Assembly (NCBI RefSeq): GCF_030384885.1
Contig: NZ_CP128613.1
DNA length: 64,000 nucleotides
Reading direction: 5' to 3' (one strand)
From: Escherichia coli
Lineage (GTDB): Bacteria; Pseudomonadota; Gammaproteobacteria; Enterobacterales; Enterobacteriaceae
Shown: piece after piece, positions 55,886 through 56,357 of the stretch
Layout of the letters: every line of letters begins with the position of its first letter
Numbering within the stretch: the first letter of the stretch is position 1
The notes under the pieces: model-generated
What the model was told of the DNA's origin: nothing
The model's input: the letters and a program-made list of their open reading frames with translations, nothing else
Database searches by the model: none
Program-made: the position numbers and the translations under genes

Positions 55886-55912
55886 AAAACAAAAAACCCC
55901 GCCGAAGCGGGG
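55886..55912 (-). terminator. Rho-independent terminator of the tRNA operon (CCCCGCTTCGGCGGGG + U-run on the reverse strand)
   Basis: GC-rich hairpin followed by T-run immediately 3' of tRNA-Pro. Confidence 0.55.
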
Positions 55913-55920
55913 TTCAAAAT

Positions 55921-55997
55921 TGGTCGGCGAGAGAGGATTCGAACCTCCGACCCACTGGTCCCAAACCAGTTGCGCTACCAAGCTGCGCTACTCGCCG
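55921..55997 (-). tRNA. proM: tRNA-Pro (anticodon UGG)
   Basis: Reverse complement CGGCGAGTAGCGCAGCTTGGTAGCGCAACTGGTTTGGGACCAGTGGGTCGGAGGTTCGAATCCTCTCTCGCCGACCA; cloverleaf with UUUGGGA anticodon loop. Confidence 0.95.
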
Positions 55998-56039
55998 AAA
56001 TACTGCTTTTTGAATTTTTAGTTCAATTCTTTAAAGTCG

Positions 56040-56126
56040 TGGTGCGAGGGGGGGGACTTGAACCCCCACGTCCGTAAGGACACTAACACCTGAAGCTAGC
56101 GCGTCTACCAATTCCGCCACCTTCGC
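56040..56126 (-). tRNA. leuT: tRNA-Leu (anticodon CAG), 87 nt with long variable arm
   Basis: Reverse complement GCGAAGGTGGCGGAATTGGTAGACGCGCTAGCTTCAGGTGTTAGTGTCCTTACGGACGTGGGGGTTCAAGTCCCCCCCCTCGCACCA. Confidence 0.95.
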
Positions 56127-56146
56127 ATTGTCACAACTTCTAATAA

Positions 56147-56223
56147 TGGGGTGGCTAATGGGATTCGAACCCACGACAACTGGAATCACAATCCAGGGCT
56201 CTACCAACTGAGCTATAGCCACC
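56147..56223 (-). tRNA. hisR: tRNA-His (anticodon GUG) with G-1
   Basis: Reverse complement GGTGGCTATAGCTCAGTTGGTAGAGCCCTGGATTGTGATTCCAGTTGTCGTGGGTTCGAATCCCATTAGCCACCCCA. Confidence 0.95.
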
Positions 56224-56280
56224 ACTACAAATCTTGTTACGCGGTATTACTACCACCGCAGCTCAAGCGCCGGGACTAAA

Positions 56281-56357
56281 TGGCGCGCCCGACAGGATTC
56301 GAACCTGAGACCTCTGCCTCCGGAGGGCAGCGCTCTATCCAGCTGAGCTACGGGCGC
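56281..56357 (-). tRNA. argX: tRNA-Arg (anticodon CCG)
   Basis: Reverse complement GCGCCCGTAGCTCAGCTGGATAGAGCGCTGCCCTCCGGAGGCAGAGGTCTCAGGTTCGAATCCTGTCGGGCGCGCCA. Confidence 0.95.

Follow-up and report, generated by a model that had tools for sequence, protein, structure and literature searches.

The tRNA cluster in the 64-kb window (the whole stretch of DNA that was analysed) is, with a probability that we put at about 97%, the chromosomal argX-hisR-leuT-proM stable-RNA operon of Escherichia coli. The earlier note, which worked from the raw letters, had described such an operon, and our analysis confirms that the operon is real and that this first interpretation was right; the operon is already known, and the finding is an ordinary one. 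The genes, their signals, the identity with K-12 and the conservation were established here from the DNA, and for transcription, regulation, processing and essentiality we draw on the cited literature on the same sequence. The span originally proposed, 55886-56357, takes in the four genes and the terminator and leaves out the promoter (56426-56369).

Identity of the four tRNA genes

In the whole window ARAGORN calls four tRNA genes and no others, each on the minus strand, and Rfam (RF00005) finds the same four with 64.1, 69.7, 48.5 and 65.8 bits for Arg, His, Leu and Pro, respectively (gathering score 29; E-values from 1e-11 to 3e-7). This concordance of two independent tRNA callers supports the identification as argX-hisR-leuT-proM. 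The earlier note had given the four co-oriented reverse-strand genes the same names and anticodons and had let its reading stand or fall with tRNA prediction software; ARAGORN and Rfam both recover all four genes, and exactly these.

The first gene, argX, encodes tRNA-Arg(CCG) in 77 nt (56281-56357, minus strand) and is 100% identical to its K-12 counterpart. It is followed on the same strand by hisR, which encodes tRNA-His(GUG) (56147-56223), by leuT, which encodes the class II tRNA-Leu(CAG) in 87 nt with a long variable arm (56040-56126), and by proM, which encodes tRNA-Pro(UGG) in 77 nt (55921-55997). ARAGORN places hisR at 56147-56222, and the G at 56223, directly 5' of that start, faces C73 and is the G-1 of tRNA-His, just as had been noticed from the letters. 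The variable-arm insertion of leuT is seen in the Rfam alignment of the identical gene from another locus (L075, E. coli O157:H7 F6294), and a reading of the minus-strand sequence shows that all four genes encode their 3' CCA and that the first base of proM is C1, the role of which is among the subjects covered by PMC8860583. The hallmarks of the individual isoacceptors, that is, the G-1:C73 pair of tRNA-His, the long variable arm of tRNA-Leu, the C1 of tRNA-Pro and the encoded CCA, are all present.

Compared with K-12 ER2796, the window shows 0 differences over positions 56483-55875, a stretch of 609 nt that starts at the stop codon of yifK and takes in the terminator, and the coding sequence flanking the operon is about 5% diverged from that strain. 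Because these 609 nt are identical, we take the operon in the window to be K-12's own argX-hisR-leuT-proM operon. The hisR gene is the sole tRNA-His gene of E. coli and is essential, and proM encodes an essential tRNA-Pro isoacceptor (PMC11480407). It follows from these two genes that the unit should be essential, and experiment has shown that the argX-hisR-leuT-proM transcription unit is (PMC11480407).

The region holds little else that could be mistaken for a gene product. Two open reading frames, 56031-56225 on the minus strand and 55773-56021 on the plus strand, lie on the tRNA genes, are absent from the RefSeq annotation and were dismissed as spurious. An Rfam E-value scan of both strands at 55400-56900 gave no additional RNA family above threshold, the best matches reaching at most 26 bits against gathering scores of 41-90; these sub-threshold matches all overlap proM and its terminator and were judged to be chance. 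The minimum-free-energy fold of the whole precursor fails to give all four cloverleaves, and thermodynamic folding is known to be limited for tRNAs.

Flanks of the operon and the proM-glmZ interval

In RefSeq the gene order is thrP - tRNA-Arg - tRNA-His - tRNA-Leu - tRNA-Pro - aslB - aslA - hemY, where thrP is the present annotation of the gene formerly called yifK. An exact-pattern scan over the His-Leu junction, with one genome per species, gave 72 loci from about 20 genera of Enterobacteriaceae, with which gene order was compared by tblastn of the window proteins. The general order across these loci is wecG-yifK-tRNAs-hemY, and the interval between proM and hemY varies in length and content. 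It measures 409-900 nt in 35 of the 51 measurable species, where it carries no gene and aslB-aslA is absent, measures about 1.9 kb in seven species and there encodes an MFS-like protein (Pfam match below the curated cut-off), and measures 3.86 kb in one species, where the roughly 3.9-kb interval encodes an RHS-repeat protein. In Escherichia with aslB-aslA the distance is 3.87-4.48 kb, and in the window it is 5155 nt, the extra 1.26 kb being an IS3-family element. Kluyvera and Pseudocitrobacter likewise have the aslB-aslA pair downstream of proM. In comparisons with Salmonella, Citrobacter, Klebsiella and Enterobacter, homology breaks off at 55876-55883 and is regained at 51040, a little upstream of glmZ; the stretch in between (51041-55875, comprising aslA-aslB and the IS) has no counterpart in these four genera, in which glmZ and hemY lie 0.4-0.9 kb past proM.

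We therefore interpret aslB-aslA as a lineage-restricted islet between the proM terminator and glmZ and not as family-wide backbone. On this point the earlier note needs amending: it had called both flanks, aslB and yifK, backbone genes, and while both names are correct and aslB is backbone within Escherichia, aslB is not backbone across the family, absent as it is from those 35 of 51 species. A literature search for a link of aslA or aslB to proM found nothing relevant. The aslB-aslA pair is usually treated as part of the E. coli backbone. We tentatively raise the possibility, without favouring it, that the interval from the proM terminator to the glmZ promoter is a recurrent, integrase-free hotspot of gene gain in the Enterobacteriaceae, citing the MFS-type transporter gene in several Enterobacter-like lineages, the RHS-repeat gene in another and the empty interval in most genera; if so, the E. 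coli aslB-aslA pair would be an acquired islet bordered by the end of a tRNA operon.

It is less probable still, and in our judgment unlikely, that the tRNA cluster itself is a present or former integration site. Such a site would be in keeping with an interval that differs between genera in length and cargo right after the proM terminator, but the other signs of integration were sought and are missing from the window. When the last 20 nt of each tRNA were searched against the whole 64 kb with up to three mismatches, only self-matches were returned and no duplicated 3' ends, which led us to reject a former island insertion at the tRNAs. The repeat finder detected only the similarity among the T-arms of the tRNAs and no flanking direct repeats, and no tyrosine or serine integrase lies beside the tRNAs, the neighbours of which are thrP and a radical-SAM/SPASM maturase gene, aslB; that the tRNAs have neither an integrase nor a direct repeat beside them had already been remarked on from the letters, and the statement holds. 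The only recombinase nearby is the DDE transposase of the IS3-family element inside aslA. Moreover, homology breaks after the terminator and not within a tRNA as at a typical attB, and the GC content of the aslB-aslA islet (0.50-0.54) equals that of the backbone, leaving no foreign signature in base composition. The differences in cargo between genera may reflect gains or losses.

The IS3-family element spans 1258 bp (52899-54156, plus strand) and interrupts aslA, which starts at 51448 on the plus strand. Its ends are TG...CA, it is flanked by a 3-bp target duplication (TAC at 52896-52898 and 54157-54159), and it encodes OrfA (52935-53282, HTH_Tnp_1) and OrfB (about 53279-54148, rve). The latter is the 'integrase core' DDE protein that lies about 1.8 kb downstream of the tRNAs; it is the transposase of the element and is not associated with the tRNAs. 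Copies that are 99.5-99.7% identical are common elsewhere in E. coli, and an IS at a comparable place in aslA occurs in only 1 of 5426 complete genomes. A full-length Rfam match to 'isrC Hfq binding RNA' (145 bits, 52967-53089, plus strand) lies inside the left end of the element, overlapping the start of OrfA; because it lies wholly within the IS, it reports IS sequence here and not an independent sRNA gene.

Three other features of the wider window were observed. A perfect 15-nt inverted repeat, CTTATCCGGCCTACA / TGTAGGCCGGATAAG (54421-54481), lies in the gap where the 3' ends of aslB and aslA converge and has the look of a REP/BIME element. GlmZ is matched over its full length by Rfam (218 bits, 50817-51023, minus strand) at its expected place beside hemY, and a further full-length Rfam match, to 'Erse small RNA' (318 bits), lies at 6005-6256 on the minus strand.

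Promoter and 5' leader

Upstream of argX, a promoter scan identified a -35 hexamer TAGACA (56402-56407, minus strand) and a -10 hexamer TATTAT (56379-56384) that are separated by 17 nt and together match the consensus at 10 of 12 positions (56407-56379). Because the scan alone is weak, with one site in the region against 0.8 expected by chance, our assignment of the pArgX promoter rests on conservation and on the literature. Conservation across the 72 loci extends to the A/T tract, both hexamers, the discriminator and the leader, the variable parts being the spacer between the hexamers and the upstream region. At -35, nearly all 72 loci have TAGACA and a few have TGGACA; at -10, nearly all related loci from the roughly 20 genera have TATTAT or TAATAT, and three variants have TACTAT or TAGTAT. 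An A/T tract, AATTTATTTAAAAA (56413-56426), which is kept A/T-rich in 72 of 72 loci and resembles an UP element, directly precedes the -35 hexamer. Between the -10 hexamer and the start site lies the GC-rich discriminator CCACCCCCG (56370-56378), conserved as CC(A/G)(C/G/A)CCCCG. A GC-rich discriminator is typical of stringently controlled stable-RNA promoters, and the locus combines what is looked for in such a promoter, sigma-70 hexamers followed by the GC-rich CCACCCCCG, with conservation across genera. Upstream sequences are reported to matter for the activity of pArgX (PMC5137449). The promoter is inhibited by ppGpp in vivo in a DksA-dependent manner, and DksA alone stimulates binding of RNA polymerase (PMC5137449); this inhibition by ppGpp/DksA was demonstrated for a sequence identical to pArgX in the window (PMC5137449).

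We derived the start site by placing the -265..+135 SmaI/HindIII fragment of Lyzen et al. (PMC5137449) on the window. The mapped +1 is the C at 56369, which agrees with the 'first nucleotide, C' of that report (PMC5137449) and defines a 12-nt 5' leader, CAACGGCGCUAA (56358-56369). From this start to the terminator the primary transcript measures about 480 nt, which fits the precursor of about 500 nt that builds up when RNase E is mutant (PMC3879156). The leader, which RNase P removes, has the same sequence in almost all of the 72 loci. In the fold of the precursor, the leader bases GGCGC (56365-56361) can pair with GCGCC, the first five bases of argX (56357-56353), around a UAA loop (56353-56365, minus strand); the leader arm of this hairpin is kept in all genera, and the loop differs in two loci (UAC in L043 and ACUGG in L034).

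It is very improbable that the tRNAs have no promoter to themselves and depend wholly on read-through from yifK. A terminator scan found no terminator-like site between the yifK stop codon and argX, and in Salmonella, which has no terminator between these genes, a minor 2.0-kb yifK-tRNA read-through RNA enters the operon (PMC3879156). However, the strong promoter located immediately upstream of argX accounts for most of the transcription of the tRNA operon (PMC3879156), pArgX has been characterised both in vitro and in vivo (PMC5137449), and the block formed by the -35 hexamer, the -10 hexamer and the discriminator is conserved across genera.

Terminator, spacers and tRNA processing

The operon ends, as the earlier note had proposed, in a GC hairpin followed by a U-run. 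Terminator scanning and folding place an AU-rich RNase E site (AUUUU) right after the CCA of proM and then an intrinsic terminator with a hairpin at 55915-55894 and a T-run at 55893-55884 (55884-55920 in all, minus strand). The hairpin starts five bases past the proM CCA and reads GAACCCCGC-UUCG-GCGGGGUUU, then UUUGUUUUCU; it has 9 pairs (6 GC), a 4-nt loop and the tail TTTGTTTTCT (55915-55894). Its predicted folding energy is -16.4 kcal/mol (z = -3.96), and 0 of 200 shuffled sequences fold as well. The terminator is nearly invariant among the 72 loci. In its 11 sequence variants the nine stem pairs are 100% paired, with two compensatory pairs (C:G to G:C in L034 and C:G to U:A in L047); the result is equalled by only 6 of 500 shuffles, and pairing is far poorer in every slid register. 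These two events, and they are two only, give a modest indication that the stem has been kept by compensatory change. Homology between genera ends no more than about 10 nt past the T-run, a position that marks the end of the conserved unit. About 30-80 nt past the proM terminator, the loci L006, L014, L050 and L034 have in common a motif, ...GAGGATGAGAACCTCCGGGGCAGGAGGTT..., and the same four loci have a variant terminator loop. We know of no sRNA-sponge role for the 3' trailer of proM.

The tRNA genes are separated by spacers of 58 nt (57 plus the G-1), 20 nt and 42 nt. The transcribed argX-hisR spacer of 57 nt (56224-56280, minus strand) has a short predicted hairpin that is no better than in shuffled sequences (z = 0.16), and RNase E sites have been reported in it (PMC3985628). 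The hisR-leuT spacer of 20 nt (56127-56146) is AU-rich and unstructured, with a predicted fold of 0 kcal/mol, and likewise has an RNase E site (PMC2190699). The leuT-proM spacer of 42 nt (55998-56039) is AU-rich and is cut by RNase E (PMC5291269). Against shuffled sequences, the three spacers and the 119-nt interval between proM and aslB show no gain in folding (z from -0.7 to +0.6), and structured spacers or a structured aslB leader were rejected on these grounds.

Published work covers the processing of this precursor, which RNase E cuts by direct entry in AU-rich single-stranded segments (PMC3985628). An RNase E site was mapped after hisR as CCAUU|AUUA (PMC2190699), and the sequence that follows the hisR CCA in the window, UUAUUA, is that mapped site. 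In rne-1 mutants the RNase E/RNase P intermediates XRTM, RTM and RT build up (PMC2190699). RNase E releases proM by cutting 3, 4 and 15 nt upstream of its 5' end, and a single cut by the same enzyme right after the CCA yields the mature 3' end and takes off the whole terminator without exonuclease trimming (PMC5291269).

Distribution and variants of the operon

A 901-nt query covering the locus is contiguous in 5333 of 5426 complete E. coli genomes, with one genome at 100%, and the Arg-His-Leu-Pro order is present in every one of the 72 loci that is not cut by its own end. Phages and islands frequently bear tRNA arrays, and 8 of 20918 matching places lie on plasmids. The idea that a mobile element, such as a prophage or a plasmid with a tRNA array, and not the core chromosome is home to the four tRNAs is nevertheless effectively refuted by synteny, the same wecG-yifK ... 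hemY context recurring in about 20 genera and in practically all E. coli genomes, and by the absence of phage or plasmid genes nearby and the presence at this locus of the only tRNA-His gene, which is essential (PMC11480407); we regard it as the least credible of the alternatives.

Some genomes depart from the standard arrangement. In NZ_CP170378.1 (H78), listed as a 'complete' E. coli genome, the query is matched over only 10%, through a copy of tRNA-Leu elsewhere; this genome seems to have no contiguous copy of the operon, which is probably an assembly problem. Two tandem copies of proM are found in Citrobacter sp. 18056 (L047, 255-476), and in a metagenome-assembled genome (L011, 1197-1273) the Arg gene is called with the anticodon GCG in place of CCG, which may be an assembly error.

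Five annotated tRNAs are present in O157:H7 strains and in strain 10671, the second leuT lying 139 nt past the first (2062-2200 in L075, E. coli O157:H7 F6294; 20562-20700 in L074, strain 10671). The T-arm repeats of hisR and proM lie 226 nt apart, which is just the length added. The segment between the two Leu genes consists, in order, of the leuT-proM spacer, the 5' part of proM, a crossover within GGTTCGAATCC, the 3' end of hisR and the hisR-leuT spacer, and the novel junction joins the 5' part of proM to CCCATTAGCCACCCCA. Judged from this order, the addition is a 226-nt tandem duplication produced by unequal crossover between the hisR and proM T-arms. An island insertion at proM in strain 10671, considered on the grounds that the match (H77) ends 14 nt before the 3' end of proM, was rejected; it is the same 226-nt leuT duplication. 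The Pro/His chimera created at the crossover, the 5' part of proM with the 3' end of hisR, is called tRNA-Pro by ARAGORN and scores 34.6 bits in Rfam against 65.8 for proM; it has a broken T-stem and a shifted acceptor stem, is unannotated in RefSeq and is in all likelihood a pseudo-tRNA. Our literature search found no paper that describes the O157:H7 leuT duplication or the chimera. Three of our observations are minor and descriptive and could serve the annotation of tRNA copy number or the typing of E. coli lineages: the variability of the proM-glmZ interval, the IS found in aslA, and the leuT duplication of O157:H7 with its Pro/His chimera.

Discussion

Our reading of the sequence, together with the published work, suggests a model in which sigma-70 RNA polymerase would start at the strong pArgX promoter (+1 = 56369), which ppGpp and DksA would shut down during starvation, and in which the resulting RNA of about 480 nt would end at the intrinsic terminator just past proM. 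RNase E would then cut the AU-rich single-stranded spacers to give separate pre-tRNAs, the 5' ends of which would be made by RNase P, leaving the encoded G-1 on tRNA-His, where it would pair with C73 and act as an identity element for HisRS. The 3' ends of the Arg, His and Leu tRNAs would be trimmed by exonucleases to the encoded CCA, and that of proM would arise in one step when RNase E cuts right behind the CCA and removes the terminator.

The operon is a model promoter for stringent control and a model substrate for direct entry of RNase E and for the one-step 3' maturation of a proline tRNA; it is biologically important but thoroughly characterised. The present case is a solid positive control, in which the raw sequence alone sufficed to recognise a textbook operon down to the G-1 of tRNA-His.

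The closest known system is K-12's argX-hisR-leuT-proM operon (the pArgX unit; the hisR locus of Salmonella), with which the window shares gene order, anticodons, spacers, promoter, leader and terminator as well as the flanking genes yifK/thrP and aslB. Within the operon there is no difference from K-12; the differences lie outside it, in flanks that are about 5% diverged and in an aslA gene split by the IS3-family element. Similarly to glyW-cysT-leuZ and other RNase E-dependent tRNA operons, the unit contains multiple tRNAs with AU-rich spacers, is processed by RNase E and then by RNase P and 3' exonucleases, and ends in an intrinsic terminator (PMC2190699). In contrast to glyW-cysT-leuZ, the last gene here encodes a proline tRNA, the 3' end of which is made by RNase E at the CCA without exonuclease trimming (PMC5291269). 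As for the promoter, pArgX resembles the rrnB P1-type promoters in its GC-rich discriminator, in the A/T-rich tract upstream and in the unusually long distance from the -10 hexamer to the start site, and both are inhibited in vivo by ppGpp and DksA (PMC5137449). Unlike rrnB P1, pArgX makes open complexes that are very stable, and DksA by itself activates it; in these respects it is nearer to lambda pR (PMC5137449). Finally, we note that the tRNA-linked islands at selC, leuX and pheV are like the present locus in having variable gene content immediately downstream of a tRNA, whereas here there is no integrase, no duplicated tRNA 3' end and no deviation in composition, and the junction lies past the terminator.
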